Shown here piece by piece: positions 9,920 to 43,560 of a DNA stretch of 64,000 nucleotides. The stretch is from the NCBI GenBank assembly GCA_041665505.1, contig JBAYIR010000002.1, positions 75,602 to 139,601 on the forward strand, given 5' to 3'. The notes beneath the pieces were generated by a model that worked only from the letters and a program-made list of their open reading frames with translations, searched no databases and was not told the DNA's origin. The number at the start of each line of letters is the position of its first letter. Position 1 is the first letter of the stretch. The position numbers were made by a program, and so were the translations under genes. The stretch comes from Patescibacteria group bacterium. GTDB lineage: Bacteria > Patescibacteriota > Patescibacteriia > UBA1558 > GWA2-36-10.

Positions 9920-12766
9920 TTATTTATTAATCATTTTGGCTAAATAATTACCAGTGTGAGATTCTTTGACTTTGGCTACCTGAGTTGGTGTGCCTTGAGC
10001 CACTATTTGGCCACCCTTATCTCCTCCTTCTGGTCCCAAATCTATTACCCAGTCAGAACTTTTAATGACATCCAAATTATGTTCAATCACTAGTACAGTA
10101 TTGCCTTTATCTACCAAGCGGTGTAAGACTTCCAACAATCTTTTGACATCATCAAAATGTAAGCCCGTAGTAGGCTCATCCAAAATGTATAAAGTTCGAC
10201 CAGAAGAACGACGGGATAATTCAGTAGCTAGTTTGATACGCTGAGCTTCACCGCCAGACAAAGTAGTAGCTGGTTGTCCAAGTTTTATATAACCTAAACC
10301 CACATCCACTAAAGTTTTTAGTTTATTATGTATATTTGGTACATCATCAAAAAAATTCATAGCCTCATCAGCGGTCATTTGTAAAACTTCTGAAATATCT
10401 TTGGCTTTATAATGTATTTCTAAAGCATCATCATTATATCTTTTGCCGTGGCATTCCTTACATTCTACATAGACATTTGGTAAAAAATTCATTTCTATTT
10501 TGATAGAACCATCGCCCTGACAATTCTCACAACGACCACCTTTAACATTAAAAGAAAATCTACCGGCTTTGTAGCCTCTAATTTGAGCTTCGGATAATTC
10601 CGCAAACAAATCTCTAATATAAGTAAAGGCTCCAGTATAAGTAGCGGGATTGGAGCGAGGGGTGCGACCAATTGGTGATTGATCAATATCAATTACTTTA
10701 TCTATATTTTCCAAGCCTTTGATTTCTCGATGCTCACCAGGATTATCTTTGGAGCGATAAAAATGTCTAGTCAAAGCTTTGGCTAAAATCTCCGTCATTA
10801 GAGTTGATTTACCAGAACCAGATACACCAGTCACGGATATAAATTTACCTAGTGGAAACTCCACATCTATGTCTTTGAGATTAAAAGCTTTGGCCCCCAA
10901 AATAGCTAAAAATTTGCCATTGCCTTTTCTATATTTTTTAGGCAAAGGAATAAATTTTTTGCCAGCTAAATACTGACCAGTCAGAGACTTTGGATTTTTT
11001 TTAATACTTTCTGGCGTGCCACAAGCAACTATCTCACCACCATGCTTACCAGCCCCTGGCCCAATGTCTATCAAATAATCCGCCTCCAGCATTGTTTCTT
11101 CGTCATGTTCAACGACAATGACTGAGTTACCCAAATCTCTCAAATCTTTAAGCGTCTTAATCAGCTTGGCATTATCTATTTGATGCAAACCAATAGATGG
11201 CTCATCCAAAATATAAAGCACTCCCGTCAGTGAAGAGCCAATCTGTGTAGCCAGACGAATACGTTGAGCTTCACCACCAGACAAAGTAGAAGCTGTTCTA
11301 TCTAAAGTCAGATAACTTAGTCCGACATTTTCCAAAAATACCAAACGCTCTCTGATTTCTTTGATTATTTGTTTGGCAATAATATTTTCATTTTCTGATA
11401 ATTCTTTTGACAAATCTCTGAATTCTCTTTGTAAATCATTGATATTTTGGCGAGAGATATCTGAGATGCTCTGGCCAGCTATTTTGATATTTAAAACTTC
11501 TGGTTTTAATCTTTTACCCTGACAATCTTCGCAGATTTCTATCCGCATATATCTTTCAATCTCACTACGGATATACTCAGAGTCAGTCTCTCGATATCTT
11601 CTTTCTAAGTTTGGTATGACTCCTTCAAAAGTATCGTTATTGTGATTATTAAACTTGGAATTATCAAGCTCTAATTTATAAGTTTCATCTCCGGTGCCTT
11701 GAAAAATAATATCTAGCTGCTTTCTGCTCAATTTATTGACGGGGACTCTAGTAGAAAAATTGTGTTTTTTGGCGACCGCCTCAATAATAGCTGTGTACCA
11801 ATTCTGATTGGCTGCGGTCCTAGACCAAGGACGGATAGCCCCCTCTGCCAAAGATAATTTTTTATTTGGTATCACCAAATCTTGATCGACGGTTAGTTTG
11901 GTACCTAAGCCCGTACAACTAGGACAAGCGCCGTGGGGACTATTGAAAGAAAAATTTCTAGACTCAATAGTCAAAAAAACTACCTCCGGATGTTCAAAAC
12001 AACTAAAGTGTTCGGAAAAAAATAAATCTTTTTTTTCTCTGGGCAAATGCACGGTCAAAAAACCATTACCTAAATCTAAAGCAATGTCTACTACCTGATT
12101 CAACCTGTCTTTAGTTTTTTTAGTACCATCCCGTCTAAGGTGATCAATAGCTACCTCAATATCATGCCTCTTATGTTTATCCAGTTCGATATTTAAAACA
12201 TCTTTAAGATTATAAAATTCTCCATCAATTCTAACTTTTTTATAGCCAGAAAGTTTTATCCTAGCGATAGCTTGTTGATGATCGCCTTTTTTATTTTTAA
12301 CAATTGGTGCCAGCACTATAAATTCTGCTTCTTTTGGTAATTGCCAAATTTTATTAGAAATTTCTTTTTGTGTTTGTTTGATCAAAGCTTTAGCACATTT
12401 GTGACAATGCGGCGTGCCGACTTTGGCAAACAAAAGTCTGAGATAATCATATATCTCTGTCACTGTCCCGACAGTGGAGCGAGGATTTCTAGAAGAAGAT
12501 CTCTGATCAATAGAAATAGCTGGTGACAAACCATCAATCTGTTCAACATCTGGCTTATCCATAATATCTAGAAACTGCCGAGCATAGGAAGACAATGATT
12601 CCACGTAACGACGTTGACCTTCGGCATAAATAGTATCAAATGCTAAAGAGGACTTTCCTGATCCAGAAAGTCCCGTAATAACCACAAATTTATTGCGTGG
12701 TATTTTTACATCTATATTTTTGAGGTTGTGCACTTTAGCACCTTTGATTGTAATAAATTGTGGCAT
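9920..12766 (-). CDS. uvrA: Excinuclease ABC subunit A.
   Basis: 948 aa. Two ABC modules are present: Walker [13 protein letters not shown] and [10 protein letters not shown], signature LSGGEAQRI in both halves, and zinc-finger cysteines. Confidence 0.97.
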
Positions 12767-12877
12767 AAAATAAAAAAATTTATGGACCTACGAATAAATC
12801 CGTACTTATTATATCTACTTCCGCCCAGACCTCAGTAGATTGCCCTCTTTATAATCAAATAACAGTCCCCGTAACTA

Positions 12878-12889
12878 TTCAAATTTGAA
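12878..12889. promoter_or_regulatory. Perfect 12-bp palindrome upstream of uvrA; candidate operator.
   Basis: TTCAAATTTGAA lies about 110 nt upstream of the uvrA start. The function is unknown. Confidence 0.2.
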
Positions 12890-12984
12890 CATAGTGAAAA
12901 TGAAGAATAGTGAAGAAGGACAAGACAATATCGTTGACTATGGTAACACGGATTTCATAACAAGTCAATAATTAGAGTATCAAG

Positions 12985-13500
12985 GGCAAAATTAAAGGGA
13001 GCCGGTGAGGGCCCCCTAGATTTCTCGACCACAAAGCCCGCTCTAGTACAGGATATCATCTTCCGATAACTCATTACGGAGCACGGGCACCAGCCGACGT
13101 GGCCGCGTGATCGTGTCACACGAGGGCTTGGGTTGTGATTCAGGTTTGGGTTCAGGCTTGAACTTCGGCGGATTGGCCTTGGCTGGTGGTAAGGCATCCA
13201 AACCCTTGAAGCCACGATTAACAGCATTGCGGATACGCTGAATATGAAACTTCTTCTCCTCCACGGTCCAAGGACCACGACTGTTGAGCTTGATAAACAG
13301 GTCCCGCAAATGCTTGCACTTGCCACGAGACCGACGAGGCTGGCGACGCGAAACACGTTTAGAAGGGTCATAACGACGTTCAGAGTGGGTTATAGGTGCA
13401 AACTTGGACTTGCCACGGCTGCGCCGAAGCGGACGGTAGGTGGCACTCTTAAGAGACATGCTGTTACTCCTTATGGCCTGAGTGAAGAACATCCTGGGAA
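12985..13500. other. GC-rich compositional island 1.
   Basis: High-GC codon usage shifts abruptly against the AT-rich flanks. The island holds one gene with an AAGGAG RBS. Confidence 0.7.
13043..13459 (-). CDS. Highly basic Arg/Lys-rich small protein of unknown function, encoded in a GC-rich island.
   Basis: The ATG at 13459-13457 is preceded by AAGGAG at a 7-nt spacing. The product reads MSLKSATYRPLRRSRGKSKFAPITHSERRYDPSKRVSRRQPRRSRGKCKHL..., with an internal RRSRGK repeat and a PKFKPEPKPESQPKP tract. The longer ORF starting at 13492 lacks an RBS. Confidence 0.5.
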   Translation of the reverse strand: MSLKSATYRPLRRSRGKSKFAPITHSERRYDPSKRVSRRQPRRSRGKCKHLRDLFIKLNSRGPWTVEEKKFHIQRIRNAVNRGFKGLDALPPAKANPPKFKPEPKPESQPKPSCDTITRPRRLVPVLRNELSEDDILY

Positions 13501-13588
13501 AACAAAAATATATTATAATTGCTAAGCCTAATTGTCAATTTTTAAACTAAGCATTAATCTACTAAATATTGCTAAATTAAGCCTAAAG

Positions 13589-13617
13589 TTGACAAAAAGA
13601 GCTTTATCTGTTAGTAT
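13589..13617 (+). promoter_or_regulatory. Sigma-70-type promoter of secG.
   Basis: TTGACA (13589-13594), a 17-nt spacer, then TAGTAT (13612-13617), about 30 nt upstream of the secG ATG. Confidence 0.6.
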
Positions 13618-13647
13618 GGGGTAGTTATTTATTACTTCTCATAAACA

Positions 13648-13866
13648 ATGAAAAACTTAATCTATATTATTCAAATTGTGATTTCCATCCTTTTGATGAT
13701 CAGTATTTTGCTCCAACAAAAAGGATCTGGCCTAGGAGCTGGTTTCGGCGGCGAAGGCACTGTTTACCGTACCAAGAGAGGCGCTGAAAAATTTATTTTC
13801 AAATTTACAATTGTCTTAGCTGTTTTATTTTTGGCCACCTCCTTGGCTAATTTATTTATCGAATAG
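13648..13866 (+). CDS. secG: Preprotein translocase subunit SecG.
   Basis: 72 aa with two TM helices and LLQQKGSGLGAGFGGEG, the SecG glycine-rich signature. Confidence 0.8.
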   Translation: MKNLIYIIQIVISILLMISILLQQKGSGLGAGFGGEGTVYRTKRGAEKFIFKFTIVLAVLFLATSLANLFIE

Positions 13867-13922
13867 CTATTTTTAATAATTAAAACAAAAATATAAAGAT
13901 CCCCTCTAAAATTAAAAGTTTT

Positions 13923-15767
13923 TTGATTTTTACAAAAAATAAAAGTCAAAATATCTTTGGCTATTTTTTGTCTTTGATTAAAATTGGTAAAGATAAGCTG
14001 GCTTTAAATGAAGAAACTGATGTTAATCAGCAACTGATAATACAGCTCAACAAAAAGAAAATTCCTAACTTAGGACAGCTAAAACAATTACCAAAGTTCC
14101 TTAATAAAAAAGAAAAACTCCAATTGACCCTAGCCTTGGCTATATTTATAATATCCAGTTTTGGTGTTGCTTGGCGTTTTTATCTAAAGAGTTCAAATAC
14201 TGTCCCCGACTACGGCGGTACTTATATTGAAGGTATGATTGGTGTACCAAATTTGGTCAATCCTATACTAGCTACCAGTGATGTGGATAGAGACCTGACT
14301 AAATTGATATTTTCAGGTCTGATGAAGCAAGATGGTTCTAATCAACTAGTACCTGATTTGGCTAGTGGCTATAGTATAGACGCCAGTCAAACTACTTATA
14401 CTTTTGAGTTGCGCGATGATTTGCGCTGGCACGATGGAGAGCCTATCACTGCTCAAGATGTCTTATTTACTATCGCCAACATCAAAAATCCCGAATACAA
14501 AAGTCCTTTTAAAAATAGTTTCAATGGCGTCAGTGTCCAAGCTATCAATGATAGTACTATTCAATTTAAGTTAGAAAAACCTTTTAGTCCTTTTCTATCA
14601 ATTTTGACTATTGGTATTTTACCTGAACATCTTTGGTATTCCATTCCTGCTTTTGGTGCTAATTTAGCTGATTTAAATATCAAGCCAATTGGTTCTGGAC
14701 CATACAAATTCAAATCCCTGACTAGAGAAAGTAGTGGCAGTATCAAATCATACGTTCTAGAATCATACGAAGATTATCATCTAGCTAGAGCCTACATCAA
14801 TGAATTAAGTTTTAAATTCTACCCTGATTTTGAAACAGCGGTGACTGCTTTGCAAAACAAAAATGTAGATGGACTTATTTACCTGCCAAAAGAATACAAA
14901 GAACAGCTAAAAAATTCCAAAATCACTTTGCACAACCTACAATTTCCTCAATACACCGCCTTATTTTTCAATCCCAAAAATAATAATCTGCTAAATGATA
15001 ATAGTTTCCGCCAAGCCCTGTCTTTGGCTGTAGATAAACAAAGAATACTTGATGAAGTATTATATGATGATGGACAAATAATACATGGTCCTATTTTACC
15101 TGGCCTGCTAGGTTATAATAGTGAACTTAAAGCTGAGGATTATAACGTTGATAAAGCCAAAGAAATCTTAGATGGTTTAAAATGGCCGATGCCAGCTGAA
15201 GGAAATTTCCGCACCCAAACTAAAGATGATCAAAGCACCGAATTGAGCATCAAAATAAGCACCATTGACCAAGCTGAAAATGTGAAAATAGCTTCCATTA
15301 TTCAAGAAAATTGGCAAAGTATAGGCATCAAAACTGAATTAGATATTGTCTCCAAAGATAAAATAAAAAAAGACAGAATTGATGGACGTGATTATCAAGT
15401 ATTAATCTTTGGCCAAGTAATAAATACTAACTCTGGACCTTACCCCTTTTGGCATTCTAGCCAAAATACCAATCCGGGGCTAAACCTGAGTGTCCTGGCC
15501 AACAAAGATATCGATAGCTACCTAGATACAATACGTAATGCCCCAAATGAAGCAACGGCTTTAGAACCGCTACAAAAATTTCAAGAAAAATTATTGGATT
15601 TAAATTTTGCTATATTTTTATATAATCCTACTTACACTTATCCTATCGCTGATAAATTAAAAGGCTTAGAAGACCTAAAATTTATTAATTTACCAGCTGA
15701 TAGATTCAACAACATCACGTCTTGGTATATAAAAACCAAACGTATGTTATCACGTAATGATTCTTAA
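13923..15767 (+). CDS. ABC transporter substrate-binding protein, family 5 (oligopeptide/nickel type), membrane-anchored.
   Basis: The SBP_bac_5-like core reads GGTYIEGMIGVPNLVNPILATSDVDRDLTKLIFSGLM...LRDDLRWHDGEPITAQDV. An N-terminal TM anchor is present. The annotated start at 13923 is TTG, so the true start is uncertain. Confidence 0.65.
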   Translation: MIFTKNKSQNIFGYFLSLIKIGKDKLALNEETDVNQQLIIQLNKKKIPNLGQLKQLPKFLNKKEKLQLTLALAIFIISSFGVAWRFYLKSSNTVPDYGGTYIEGMIGVPNLVNPILATSDVDRDLTKLIFSGLMKQDGSNQLVPDLASGYSIDASQTTYTFELRDDLRWHDGEPITAQDVLFTIANIKNPEYKSPFKNSFNGVSVQAINDSTIQFKLEKPFSPFLSILTIGILPEHLWYSIPAFGANLADLNIKPIGSGPYKFKSLTRESSGSIKSYVLESYEDYHLARAYINELSFKFYPDFETAVTALQNKNVDGLIYLPKEYKEQLKNSKITLHNLQFPQYTALFFNPKNNNLLNDNSFRQALSLAVDKQRILDEVLYDDGQIIHGPILPGLLGYNSELKAEDYNVDKAKEILDGLKWPMPAEGNFRTQTKDDQSTELSIKISTIDQAENVKIASIIQENWQSIGIKTELDIVSKDKIKKDRIDGRDYQVLIFGQVINTNSGPYPFWHSSQNTNPGLNLSVLANKDIDSYLDTIRNAPNEATALEPLQKFQEKLLDLNFAIFLYNPTYTYPIADKLKGLEDLKFINLPADRFNNITSWYIKTKRMLSRNDS

Positions 15768-33702: not shown

Positions 33703-33808
33703 ACAAAAGAGTGCCTCTATTTCGTTGACACAAATTACAAAATATACTTAAATATAGACGAAATGACCTTTCCACCAACCATCCACCCTTTCCCTAAGGA
33801 GGAAAAAG

Positions 33809-34261
33809 ATGAACCTGAACCTGAGTTGGTTTGAAGTCCAGAGCTACACCGAGCAGGATTTCTTCATCCGTCACCTCAAGCTTGGCTGCCACAGGCAGTA
33901 CTTTCTTCCCAGCAAACGTCGACTCATTCTTGATGTCTGCATCCCCATACTACAAGCCATCCGTGAGGGTAAAGGCATAACCCAGGAGAGCTGGGACCTG
34001 GTCAGGCTGGCTGAGAGTCGTCAGTTCCGACGTTCCGAGATCGAACCAACTATCTGGGACATCTACCAGGAGTTCAGTTCGCCTATGAACAGTCTCAAGG
34101 CTGCCAGATATCTCGGGCTGTCCCAGCGCCACTGCCTTCGCATCATCGCTGGTCTGGCTCGCCTCAACGACAATGTGCACAAGTCCAAGAAGAAGGGCTG
34201 GCAGGTGCCGGTCGTCGCTCTTGATGATTGGTTGATCAAGTATCGTCCGGCCACAAATTGA
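33809..34261 (+). CDS. Excisionase/AlpA-type helix-turn-helix protein of mobile-element origin.
   Basis: The C-terminal NSLKAARYLGLSQRHCLRIIAGL...KKKGWQVPVVALDDWL fits the Xis-family HTH (HTH_17) pattern. The first ~80 aa are unassigned. Confidence 0.5.
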   Translation: MNLNLSWFEVQSYTEQDFFIRHLKLGCHRQYFLPSKRRLILDVCIPILQAIREGKGITQESWDLVRLAESRQFRRSEIEPTIWDIYQEFSSPMNSLKAARYLGLSQRHCLRIIAGLARLNDNVHKSKKKGWQVPVVALDDWLIKYRPATN

Positions 34262-34275
34262 CCAACAACGATGAA

Positions 34276-34306
34276 GCCGGTCGCGCGCAGCGCGCGACCG
34301 GCTTTA
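34276..34306 (+). terminator. Strong GC hairpin terminator.
   Basis: GCCGGTCGCGCG-CAG-CGCGCGACCGGC forms a perfect 12-bp stem followed by TTT. Confidence 0.7.
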
Positions 34307-34376
34307 AAATTAATATACAATATTGCATATACGAGACAATATGCTAAACTAAATAGCGTAATTATTATCTACCAAT

Positions 34377-39461: not shown

Positions 39462-39526
39462 AATCAGGACTATTATAACCCAAATAAAAAAATAAATCCA
39501 ACTAAAAAATTGGACAAAATAAAGGA

Positions 39527-39593
39527 CCGGGCTCCCTGGTGAGAGAGCCCGGTCGAATTCCGTGACCGCTAGTCGCTAGTTAGCGACGACTGG
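39527..39593 (-). terminator. Terminator hairpins of the pilin pair.
   Basis: CCGGGCTCCCTGGTGAGAGAGCCCGG, read on the minus strand, is followed by a T-rich tract. A second imperfect 15-bp stem spans the pilin stop codon. Confidence 0.55.
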
Positions 39594-39996
39594 TCAAGGT
39601 CAGAGCAACGGTATCAGTACCGTAACCCTTGACGACGTAGTCAGTCGGCCGACCTTCGGGGTCAGGCAGAACTTTGACACTGACCTGACCAGGAGAGGTG
39701 GCCTCACCACCGAAACGCGGCTCTGTAGCCTTGCCGGTGTAGGGGTTCTCCAACAGCTTGCCGCCCGGCAGGAAAGGCAGGAGGTCAGCCGCCGCGTCCG
39801 AGTAGAGGCCGTCGTGCCGGACGGCGAAATCCTCCATGGCCAGCTGCACGGTGTGCACCGCACCCTTGACATTGGCCTCCTTGGCCCGGTCCTGCATACT
39901 CATGTAGTTGGGGATGGCGATGGCCGCCAGAATGCCGACGATGACCACGACGATCATGAGCTCGATCAGGGTGAAACCTCTGCGCTTCTGCGACAT
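39580..39996 (-). CDS. Type IV pilin / pseudopilin (prepilin with an N-terminal methylation motif), copy 1.
   Basis: MSQKRRGFTLIELMIVVVIVGILAAIAIPNY has the class III signal (G|FTLIELM) and the hydrophobic alpha1 helix. The RBS is CAGGAGGAAAAGGAC-ATG. Confidence 0.8.
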   Translation of the reverse strand: MSQKRRGFTLIELMIVVVIVGILAAIAIPNYMSMQDRAKEANVKGAVHTVQLAMEDFAVRHDGLYSDAAADLLPFLPGGKLLENPYTGKATEPRFGGEATSPGQVSVKVLPDPEGRPTDYVVKGYGTDTVALTLTSRR

Positions 39997-40066
39997 GTCC
40001 TTTTCCTCCTGTGGAACGTCTGAAGTTTGAGATGCTTAGCCAAAGGCTAGCATCCCGCGAAGATGA

Positions 40067-40480
40067 TCAGTTGCCGCCGTGCCAGGTGAGGATATTGATC
40101 GCCTCACCAAAAGCTGTGATGATGTATCTCTGCCTCCCCCCATCGGAAATCAGCTGCACGCCGACCTCCCCCGGAGTCTTGGCACTAGCCCCGAACTGGG
40201 GCTCGGAAAACTGGCCAGTGAAGCCATTCTCCAACATCTTGCCACCCGGCAAAAGAGGCAGGAGATCCTCAGCTCGGTCGGAGTAGACTCCGTCGTGGCG
40301 CACGGCGTAGTCCTCGACCGCCAACTGCAGCGTGTGTGCCGCGGTCTTGGTCTTGTCCGTCTTGGCCGTGCGGTCCTCCATACTGATGAAGTTGGGGATG
40401 GCGACGGCCGCCAGAATGCCGATGACCACGACGACGATCATGAGCTCGATCAGAGTGAAACCTCTGCGCTTCTGCGACAT
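40067..40480 (-). CDS. Type IV pilin / pseudopilin, copy 2; a diverged tandem paralog.
   Basis: MSQKRRGFTLIELMIVVVVIGILAAVAIPNF. The first ~30 codons and a 22-nt 5'-UTR (GTCCTTTTCCTCCTGTGGAACG) are shared with copy 1. The C-terminal halves diverge. Confidence 0.8.
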   Translation of the reverse strand: MSQKRRGFTLIELMIVVVVIGILAAVAIPNFISMEDRTAKTDKTKTAAHTLQLAVEDYAVRHDGVYSDRAEDLLPLLPGGKMLENGFTGQFSEPQFGASAKTPGEVGVQLISDGGRQRYIITAFGEAINILTWHGGN

Positions 40481-40602
40481 GTCCTTTTCCTCCTGTGGAA
40501 CGAAGCTTAATCAGAAAATTTGAGGATTTTAATCCTCGTGACTCTTTAAGCTAGATTACCTTTCTGTTTCAGGTTGTTGTGAAGAACGGGACATTAACAT
40601 AG

Positions 40603-43175: not shown

Positions 43176-43189
43176 AAATATTATAATAA

Positions 43190-43560
43190 AGTAGCTGCCG
43201 GGTCCGTCTAAGACGGACCCGGCGCCAAAGGGTTTAACGAATCCGATGCCCGTTGAGGCGAAGATGGTGGGGATTGGTATAAGACATTATACCATTTCCT
43301 ATACAGATAAGCGGCCAGAAGATAAGCATGGCTACAAATACACCCAGACCAGCGCTGACAATACAAAATTGATCACTGGGTGGACCATATTCATGCCTAG
43401 CGCGCCTGAGCAAAGACACAATGTCGCTGCTATAGAGCAGACCAAAGAAAAAGCCTAGCAGAGCGTAGGCAATCGCCAAGACAAGCCACCAATTCATGAG
43501 CTTCCTCCCTTTCCAGTTTGACTCGCTACGAAGTGACAGAGAACAAAAAGCAGCTAAACA
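43190..43560. other. GC-enriched island 4, between queA and queH.
   Basis: GC content is elevated. It has a GGAGGAAGCTC-ATG RBS and a perfect 11-bp GC hairpin (CCGGGTCCGTC-TAA-GACGGACCCGG) downstream of the gene. Confidence 0.6.
43234..43497 (-). CDS. Small two-TM membrane protein, hypothetical, in a GC-enriched island.
   Basis: 87 aa. MNWWLVLAIAYALLGFFFGLLY... and ...GLGVFVAMLIFWPLICIG are the hydrophobic helices. It has a strong RBS and its own terminator. Confidence 0.45.
   Translation of the reverse strand: MNWWLVLAIAYALLGFFFGLLYSSDIVSLLRRARHEYGPPSDQFCIVSAGLGVFVAMLIFWPLICIGNGIMSYTNPHHLRLNGHRIR

Follow-up and report, generated by a model that had tools for sequence, protein, structure and literature searches.

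A GC-rich gene for a small, basic protein between secG and uvrA in a clade of Patescibacteria

A 64,000-nucleotide (nt) stretch of Patescibacteria DNA (contig JBAYIR010000002.1 of assembly GCA_041665505.1; the whole stretch is hereafter the window) has a mean GC content of 35.0%. A GC-rich patch at ~12990-13500 within it holds a minus-strand gene, lying between secG and uvrA, that we call gene X. The reading that we favour, with confidence somewhat above even, is that X is a self-contained gene, inherited within its clade, that encodes a basic and mostly disordered protein and whose GC-rich codon choice is maintained. New here is a narrowly distributed family, in which the compositionally atypical gene of a small basic protein does not behave as a transferred island.

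A self-contained transcription unit in a GC-rich island

The original prediction, made from the letters of the window, described an abrupt GC shift at this place, and a 200-nt profile bears it out: GC runs at 0.51-0.575 over 12990-13500 against 0.24-0.38 in the flanks, values that are reached within ~100 nt on each side. The 500 nt at 12990-13489 have a GC of 0.536 (z = +3.9 against all 500-nt segments of the window, only 1.2% of which are equally high), and in a 150-nt scan the strongest GC-rich stretches of the window were confined to a few islands. The island at 12990-13500 carries a single gene. The coding sequence of X occupies 13043-13459 on the minus strand, from an ATG at 13459-13457 to a TAG at 13045-13043, with a GC of 0.537, a GC content at third codon positions (GC3) of 0.547 and a predicted isoelectric point of 11.2. 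It encodes 138 amino acids (aa), where 139 had been counted, and arginine and lysine make up 26% of them (21 Arg, 15 Lys) in place of the ~30% first estimated. The list of open reading frames (ORFs) extends X to an upstream ATG at 13492, but no ribosome-binding site stands there, the matching codon is ACG in the related locus L087, and the gene calls of the orthologs do not use that start; the homologs P0001 and P0002 begin at a methionine identical to that of X.

Signals of an independent transcript stand around this frame. A promoter scan placed TTGACA-17-TAATAT, with 10 of 12 consensus matches, at 13510-13538 on the minus strand. It is followed by a 5' untranslated region (UTR) of ~40 nt (13460-13503, minus strand) with the motif GTTCTTCAC at 13490-13482 and an AAGGAG ribosome-binding site at 13472-13467, exactly at the 7-nt spacing from the ATG that had been predicted. 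The 3' end is marked by an intrinsic terminator at 12986-13017 (minus strand), in which an 8-bp GC-rich stem (13017-12996) precedes TTTAATTTTG. The low-coordinate limit of the unit is the uvrA promoter (TTGACT-17-TACCAT, 12940-12968, minus strand), which lies downstream of the X terminator and is homologous to the uvrA promoters of L006, L087 and L089. The stretch 13538-12986 on the minus strand is a self-contained transcription unit for X, and the description of the gene as self-contained holds by virtue of its own promoter, ribosome-binding site and terminator.

The same layout is found in relatives. TTGACA-17-TAnnAT stands upstream of the X homologs in L087, L088, L089, L095 and L098, and a hairpin with a T-run follows the homologs in L087, L089, L092 and L098. 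A 5' UTR motif, GTTCTT(C)AC (also written GTTCTTAC), lies ~22-30 nt before the X start in the window, L087, L088, L089, L095 and L098; its conservation extends to lineages with saturated third codon positions, and it may be an operator or binding site. No conserved hairpin was found in the X 5' UTR (consensus fold of -0.46 kcal/mol). The consensus promoter, the strong ribosome-binding site and the conserved motif together suggest that X is well expressed and possibly regulated.

Distribution and genomic position of the X family

A word-indexed search of 5.8 billion clusters returned two homologs of X. A three-sequence profile run with HMMER against all 1.84 billion cluster representatives added four (E = 3.5e-24 to 6.7e-11), and profile search a further three, giving nine homologous clusters in total; two more loci, each 41% identical to X, came from a scan of metagenome contigs. 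The family therefore amounts to ~10 sequence clusters among billions of proteins. One member, PLX25651.1, carries the annotation 'hypothetical protein' in Candidatus Parcubacteria bacterium. Neither X nor its homologs matched any family in Pfam, NCBIfam, PHROGs or PADLOC, no relatives were found among viral contigs, phage genomes or plasmids, and searches of PHROGs, PADLOC, BFVD and phage genomes gave no match that would identify X as a phage or defence protein. Our search of the literature found nothing on the X family or on GC-rich genes in Patescibacteria. As judged by these searches the family is undescribed and all but confined to one clade of Parcubacteria (Patescibacteria).

All homologs with readable flanks lie in Parcubacteria/Patescibacteria contigs and share one arrangement, in which secG is divergent from X and uvrA follows X in the same direction. 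On the longer loci the order is PGM, Band7, a dehydrogenase, an aminoacyl-tRNA synthetase (tRNA-synt_1b), RNase J, SBP_bac_5, secG, X, uvrA, an unnamed gene, Wzy_C, GroES and GroEL, in agreement with the ORFs of the window. X relatives are absent from 80 uvrA loci of GTDB species representatives, among which secG adjoins uvrA only in L006, a Patescibacteria metagenome-assembled genome (MAG) with a UvrA of 76% identity. The secG-uvrA spacer of L006 measures 184 bp and lacks X; when it is aligned with that of the window, the two loci prove to have homologous secG promoters and homologous uvrA promoters, and in the window the X unit lies between these promoters.

P0006 alone among the family members lies outside the secG-uvrA setting, on the 1478-nt contig L086 (Logan SRR22388054), which has a GC of 63%. 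P0006 is 138 aa long, with a C-terminal half that is different and longer. Downstream of it lie an ORF weakly resembling type II secretion system protein G (T2SS-G) and an ORF with a lamin-tail domain. Both kinds of protein are common in bacteria of the candidate phyla radiation (CPR), and because its neighbours are CPR-like in this way, L086 may come from a GC-rich Patescibacteria lineage.

Gene X is protein-coding and under purifying selection

The window forms a close trio with L001 and L003 (the window clade). The X orthologs of these two loci, 92% and 85% identical, are exactly 138 aa long with no indels and no stop codons. Differences at codon positions 1/2/3 number 14/11/28 and 13/6/27 for the two pairs that include L003, the more distant ones, and within the trio the ratio of nonsynonymous to synonymous substitution rates (dN/dS) is 0.23-0.63 for X vs 0.02-0.06 for secG. 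Between distant lineages the core of X retains an identity of 0.56-0.76 at positions 1 and 2, as against 0.32-0.50 at position 3. The excess of third-position changes, the dN/dS below 1 and the intact ORF in relatives together indicate that X codes for a protein, one that changes quickly under purifying selection of moderate strength.

We considered overlapping or antisense coding as a source of the high GC and rejected it, since the alternative and antisense reading frames of the island are not open consistently across lineages and the third positions of X are its least conserved. A 12-nt complementarity of the start region with 13216-13227 is absent in L003 and was regarded as chance.

GC-rich codon usage recurs across lineages

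At codon positions 1/2/3 the GC of X is 0.568/0.489/0.547, compared with 0.456/0.328/0.268 in 41 long ORFs of the window. Background GC3 in these ORFs has a mean of 0.264, a standard deviation (SD) of 0.036 and a maximum of 0.355, and the codon-usage check proposed with the original prediction places X 7.8 SD above it. It had also been suggested that amino-acid composition might drive the GC. This is true in part: with background codon usage the amino acids of X would give an expected GC of 0.406, whereas 0.537 is observed, so that composition accounts for about 30% of the excess and leaves most of it unexplained. For example, 13 of the 15 lysines of X are encoded by AAG, compared with 216 of 1480 lysines across the 41 long ORFs; AGA encodes none of its 21 arginines but 248 of 585 in the background; and C-ending codons for Phe, Tyr, His, Asn, Asp and Cys reach 10/24 in X vs 29/209 in uvrA. 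The UTRs of X have a GC of 49% (5') and 57% (3').

The bias is not peculiar to the window. In every AT-rich lineage GC3 is 0.44-0.69 for X vs 0.27-0.42 for uvrA, with z scores against neighbouring genes of +8.0 in L087 and +4.0 in L089, and the shifts towards AAG, CGN, NNC, ATC and ACC recur across these lineages. The same codons are used in nearly all of seven sequences, L086 included, for Gly (GGT in 7/7), Ile (ATC in 7/7) and Thr (ACC in 6/7). Contigs with identical X proteins show zero synonymous polymorphism. Because the bias recurs in all lineages although third positions are saturated, so that a donor signature should have decayed, we infer that the raised GC3 of X is actively maintained and is not the fading relic of a transfer. 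The GC-rich stretch also matches the extent of the transcript, from transcription start to terminator, and this coincidence suggests either a constraint on the transcript or a local process such as biased gene conversion at a frequently recombining locus.

Descent within the clade and recombination between strains

Over the N-terminal part of UvrA, L089 and L098 are 96% identical, L095 is 90% identical to that pair, and L087 is 87-88% identical to this group. The window clade is 72-75% identical to L087, L089, L095 and L098, and L006 is 69-72% identical to all others. Core identities of X rank as those of UvrA do (92%, 68-72% and so on) with one exception, and the X tree roughly tracks the UvrA tree, at a faster pace: where the N-terminal part of UvrA is ~74% identical the X core is 40-58% identical. 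The occupation of the same secG/uvrA site in lineages separated by this much UvrA divergence argues that X is ancestral to the clade and inherited within it, not newly imported. The simplest reading is that X was gained once before the X-bearing lineages split, or else was lost in L006, and has since descended vertically while its protein evolved fast and unevenly. X could also have been acquired long ago, at the base of the clade.

Among close relatives the picture is different. In the flanks (12400-14040) L001 and L003 are the closest pair, with 93-96% DNA identity, and each is ~81-88% identical to the window; within X, in contrast, the window and L001 are 93-98% identical and L001 and L003 are 86-91% identical. 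L001/L003 is thus the closest pair in the SBP_bac_5 gene, secG and uvrA, and window/L001 is the closest pair in X. This conflict between the X tree and the flanking genes in the close trio indicates that the locus recombines and that X alleles move between related strains.

Alternative explanations for the GC-rich gene

Several observations weigh against inheritance of X within the clade with a maintained GC bias. Vertical inheritance is read from about four independent lineages, and the maintained compositional anomaly, which is the interesting part of the finding, has the support of these lineages and of one short gene. The exception in the ranking of identities is L087: its X shares 58-62% identity with the window clade, against 48-52% with its sister lineages in the UvrA comparison. 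Synonymous divergence (dS) in the trio is discordant with the neighbouring gene, at 0.08 for X vs 0.50 for secG between the window and L001 and at 0.305 vs 0.108 between L001 and L003. Third-position changes that could be polarised, few in number and all within the close trio, lean from GC to AT by ~2:1 (13-15 vs 6-8; 4 vs 2 on short branches), where 1:1 would mark equilibrium and ~3.3:1 neutral decay; at these numbers the lean is also compatible with slow decay. The window has no ribosomal-protein or tRNA genes, so that the test of translational selection given below consists of GroEL, GroES and an S1-like ORF only. As for the protein, Foldseek searches against the PDB and BFVD gave just generic small helical bundles (E > 0.8), and the function ascribed to X rests on its composition and predicted disorder, its homologs having no known role.

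If the bias is maintained, the GC-richness of the whole X transcript, UTRs included, might itself be the selected trait, with composition controlling the fate of the transcript; we put this forward tentatively, as a possibility on which we would not rely. A GC-rich transcript might resist AU-directed RNases and so have a long life as mRNA, or its rare codons might throttle translation. Under such selection X would have been held 13-30 points over genomic GC3 through family-level divergence, in a reduced genome of 35% GC.

It appears unlikely that X was acquired in the distant past and that its GC owes its level not to selection on the product but to recurrent allele replacement or GC-biased gene conversion, which would hold it above the equilibrium of the genome at a locus with unusually frequent exchange between strains and with relatives richer in GC. 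Such a process would fit the discordant identities of X and its flanks in the trio (given above), the grouping of the L087 X with the window clade and not with its UvrA sisters, and an excess of GC that extends to each of the three codon positions and to the 5' and 3' UTRs. However, the sharp GC borders (~100 nt) fit the ends of a transcript and not a kilobase-scale conversion tract; co-conversion would be expected to take in secG and the 5' part of uvrA, whose GC is at most slightly raised; and a single 1.5-kb contig is the only relative known to be GC-rich.

Ordinary translational selection on a very highly expressed X, for which C-ending, CGN and GGT codons would be optimal, is in our view an unlikely explanation. 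ATC, ACC, AAC, TTC, GGT and CGT make up the classical optimal codon set. X does prefer these codons, and its promoter and ribosome-binding site are consensus. Against this stand GroEL, GroES and the S1-like ORF of the window, identified by N-terminal sequence and conserved gene order, which are unbiased, with a GC3 of 0.26, 0.21 and 0.23, respectively, and no preference for C-ending codons; among two-fold NNY codons these number 10/77 in GroEL vs 10/24 in X. Moreover, the AAG preference of X is not the one expected from tRNA-based optimality, and its UTRs are GC-rich as well. Since the GC3 of these three genes is ordinary, the bias of X is not a general expression effect.

Recent horizontal transfer from a high-GC donor, with the GC of X as an unameliorated donor signature, was the origin suggested in the original prediction, which named an actinobacterial host or its phage. 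We consider it very unlikely. In the Lawrence-Ochman amelioration framework, compositionally atypical 'alien' gene islets result from horizontal transfer. X resembles such islets in its sharp departure in GC and codon usage (GC 0.537 vs 0.351; GC3 +7.8 SD), in being one small gene with its own promoter and terminator, and in its absence from the same junction in L006, a relative that stands about as far away as others that carry X; the homolog on the 63% GC contig L086 and a pilin island of the window at 39.5-40.5 kb that does look like an import of this kind (see below) could be counted in the same direction. X differs in that it occupies one fixed site across lineages whose UvrA is ~74% identical and whose synonymous sites are saturated, while its GC3 is still far from that of the host, so that amelioration is overdue. 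Its presence is not patchy, the insertion site is constant and only the L006 lineage is without it. The 1.84 billion cluster representatives contain zero donor-side homologs, the phage, viral-contig and plasmid collections gave no match, and no integrase or transposase, tRNA or flanking direct repeat indicative of target duplication was seen within or beside the island. The neighbours of the L086 homolog are of the CPR-common kinds described above. Homologs thus lie almost only at the secG-X-uvrA position in related Patescibacteria, with no sign of an actinobacterial or phage source. Equally GC-rich homologs in relatives had been named beforehand as evidence that would speak against transfer, and they are largely what was found, L006 being without X; because relatives carry X with similarly raised GC, recent transfer is not supported.

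Finally, it is extremely improbable that the GC-rich sequence yields a structured non-coding or dual-function RNA and that the ORF is a by-product, even though GC-rich islands in AT-rich genomes usually are RNA genes and several other frames are open in the island: Rfam gave no match in the window at the gathering threshold and none even at E ≤ 1 in 12700-13700, ARAGORN found no tRNA or tmRNA genes in the window, the X transcript folds no better than its dinucleotide shuffles (z = 0.00 in the window, -1.13 for the L087 ortholog), substitutions are patterned by codon, protein homology (E = 1e-11 to 1e-24) outlasts saturation of the DNA, and the alternative frames are closed in some lineages.

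Architecture and possible function of the X protein

The protein predicted for X combines basic arms with a short conserved core. The RRSRGK(S/C)K duplication noted in the original prediction is real and is seen in the DNA as a 33-nt repeat, whose two copies are 73% identical, 90 nt apart and in frame. Copy 1 (..RPLRRSRGKSK.., 13403-13435, minus strand) corresponds to the N-terminal extension of the long-form homologs, and copy 2 (..QPRRSRGKCK.., 13313-13345, minus strand) to the ancestral basic arm leading into the core. Short-form homologs of 83-88 aa lack the copy-1 arm; the extra arm is present in the window clade and P0003, and in the window clade it derives from the 33-nt duplication. 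The core itself comprises residues 41-91 (13187-13339, minus strand), with the pattern RxRGKxKH(L/A)RxxFIE(L/F)NRRGPWTxEE(K/R)...I...V..G......LP in a ten-member alignment. It is followed by the predicted Pro/Lys/Glu-rich tract PKFKPEPKPESQPKP, which is indeed present at residues 98-112 (13124-13168, minus strand) and forms a KP/EP spacer in all homologs. The tail after this tract is variable and rich in Arg and Tyr, becoming acidic in the window clade (..NELSEDDILY), and in the ten members it invariably ends in Tyr or Trp. AlphaFold2, run with ten sequences, assigned residues 41-90 a predicted local distance difference test (pLDDT) score of 79-91, with helices at 45-61, 66-82 and 86-89, and predicted the rest to be disordered.

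Charge, predicted disorder and the short helical core make nucleic-acid binding, to RNA or DNA, the most likely function for X. In such a model a short core folded as a helical hairpin would carry disordered, Arg/Lys-rich arms on either side, with the KP/EP spacer between core and tail; that the aromatic-ended tail is a docking peptide is speculation. The original prediction offered a histone-like, viral-core or ribosome-associated protein, and no homology or fold match was found for a histone-like, viral-core or ribosomal identity; in Pfam and NCBIfam, ribosomal and nucleoid protein families (bS21, HU/IHF and others) gave no profile match at E ≤ 1-10.

We compared the core with Myb/SANT domains, since the sole PDB sequences returned by profile search were Myb repeats (E = 0.5-2.3). 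X shares with c-Myb R2/R3 (PDB 1h8a, 1gv2, 1mse) the (R/K)GPWTxEE at a helix start and an LP ~25 residues on, and hhalign of X against Myb R1-R3 gave a probability of 32% over 14 columns. However, the third (recognition) helix and the spaced Trp triad are missing in X and there is no Pfam Myb match, and the assignment was rejected. In another comparison, bS21-like small ribosomal proteins have helical hairpins and disordered basic arms, and E. coli bS21 ends in ..RLY. X is like bS21 in its size class, its pI above 11, its two long helices, its Arg/Lys arms and its aromatic C-terminal residue, but it lacks similarity to ribosomal families, is restricted to one clade and evolves fast. Small ribosomal proteins of the bS21 kind, or protamine-like nucleoid proteins, may serve as functional analogies. 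TonB-type spacers consist of (Glu-Pro)n/(Lys-Pro)n, which the PKPEPKPEP tract after the core resembles in all homologs; one family member has a weak TonB match in NCBIfam (E = 0.4) that probably stems from this tract. X lacks both the C-terminal domain of TonB and a membrane anchor, and the resemblance is one of low complexity only.

The secG-X and X-uvrA spacers

Downstream and upstream of X the spacers differ between lineages. The secG promoter (TTGACA-17-TAGTAT, 13589-13617, plus strand) is divergent from X and is conserved in L006, which lacks X. The X and secG promoter regions, which had been described as overlapping, do share one spacer, in which the promoters stand back to back, but 50 nt separate their -35 boxes and there is no overlap. 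The imperfect direct repeats reported there, ATTGCTAA..GCCTAA..TTG(T/A)CAA, exist, and their TTGNCAA parts are the two -35 boxes. In the window clade the spacer (13519-13596) holds two copies of ATTGCTAA..GCCTAA, each beside a -35 box, whereas the X and secG -35 boxes of L087, L088 and L089 are merely ~6-14 nt apart; given this difference, the window-clade spacer appears to have been lengthened by local duplication.

On the other side, the uvrA leader of the window clade measures ~170 nt (12767-12939, minus strand) and is highly conserved across the close trio; in L087, L089 and L006 it is far shorter, at a few tens of nt. The leader contains a palindrome, TTCAAATTTGAA (12889-12878), within a 5-codon mini-ORF, ATG TTC AAA TTT GAA TAG (12892-12875), and a weak hairpin with a T-run stands immediately 5' of the uvrA start in the window. 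This leader may be regulatory.

Other GC-rich islands in the window

A tandem pair of type IV pilin-like genes with the N_methyl motif (39580-39996 and 40067-40480, minus strand; GC3 0.76-0.80) lies in a second and stronger island, at 39487-40554 with 57-62% GC. These genes have thousands of homologs at 57-67% identity, several of them on megabase contigs and four in named Krumholzibacteria MAGs. Judged by these homologs, the pilin island looks like a genuine recent horizontal acquisition, unlike the X island. A third island, at 33752-34349 with 52% GC, carries a 150-aa ORF (33809-34261, plus strand; GC3 0.68) that has no match in Pfam or PHROGs and no similarity to the X island. A smaller patch at 43182-43554 with 48% GC contains an 87-aa hydrophobic ORF (43234-43497, minus strand; GC3 0.48) with sub-threshold family matches only. 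No similarity was found among the four GC-rich islands of the window.

Implications

Our results caution against reading each GC-atypical CPR gene as a recent transfer from a host: the pilin genes fit that description, and X does not. If the GC-rich codon usage of X is truly maintained, the gene would be a compact, phylogenetically replicated test case for the question of whether selection or biased gene conversion favours synonymous G+C against AT-biased mutation in bacteria. Should the GC-richness of the transcript prove to be the selected trait, X would show, in a natural and replicated setting, selection acting on the synonymous GC of a single bacterial gene, in a new Parcubacteria-specific family of nucleic-acid-binding proteins. 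If instead the bias is ordinary expression bias or slow decay, X is one more lineage-specific hypothetical protein. Parcubacteria, the composition of whose nucleoid and ribosome is poorly known, gain with X an uncharacterised, probably well expressed family of basic proteins.

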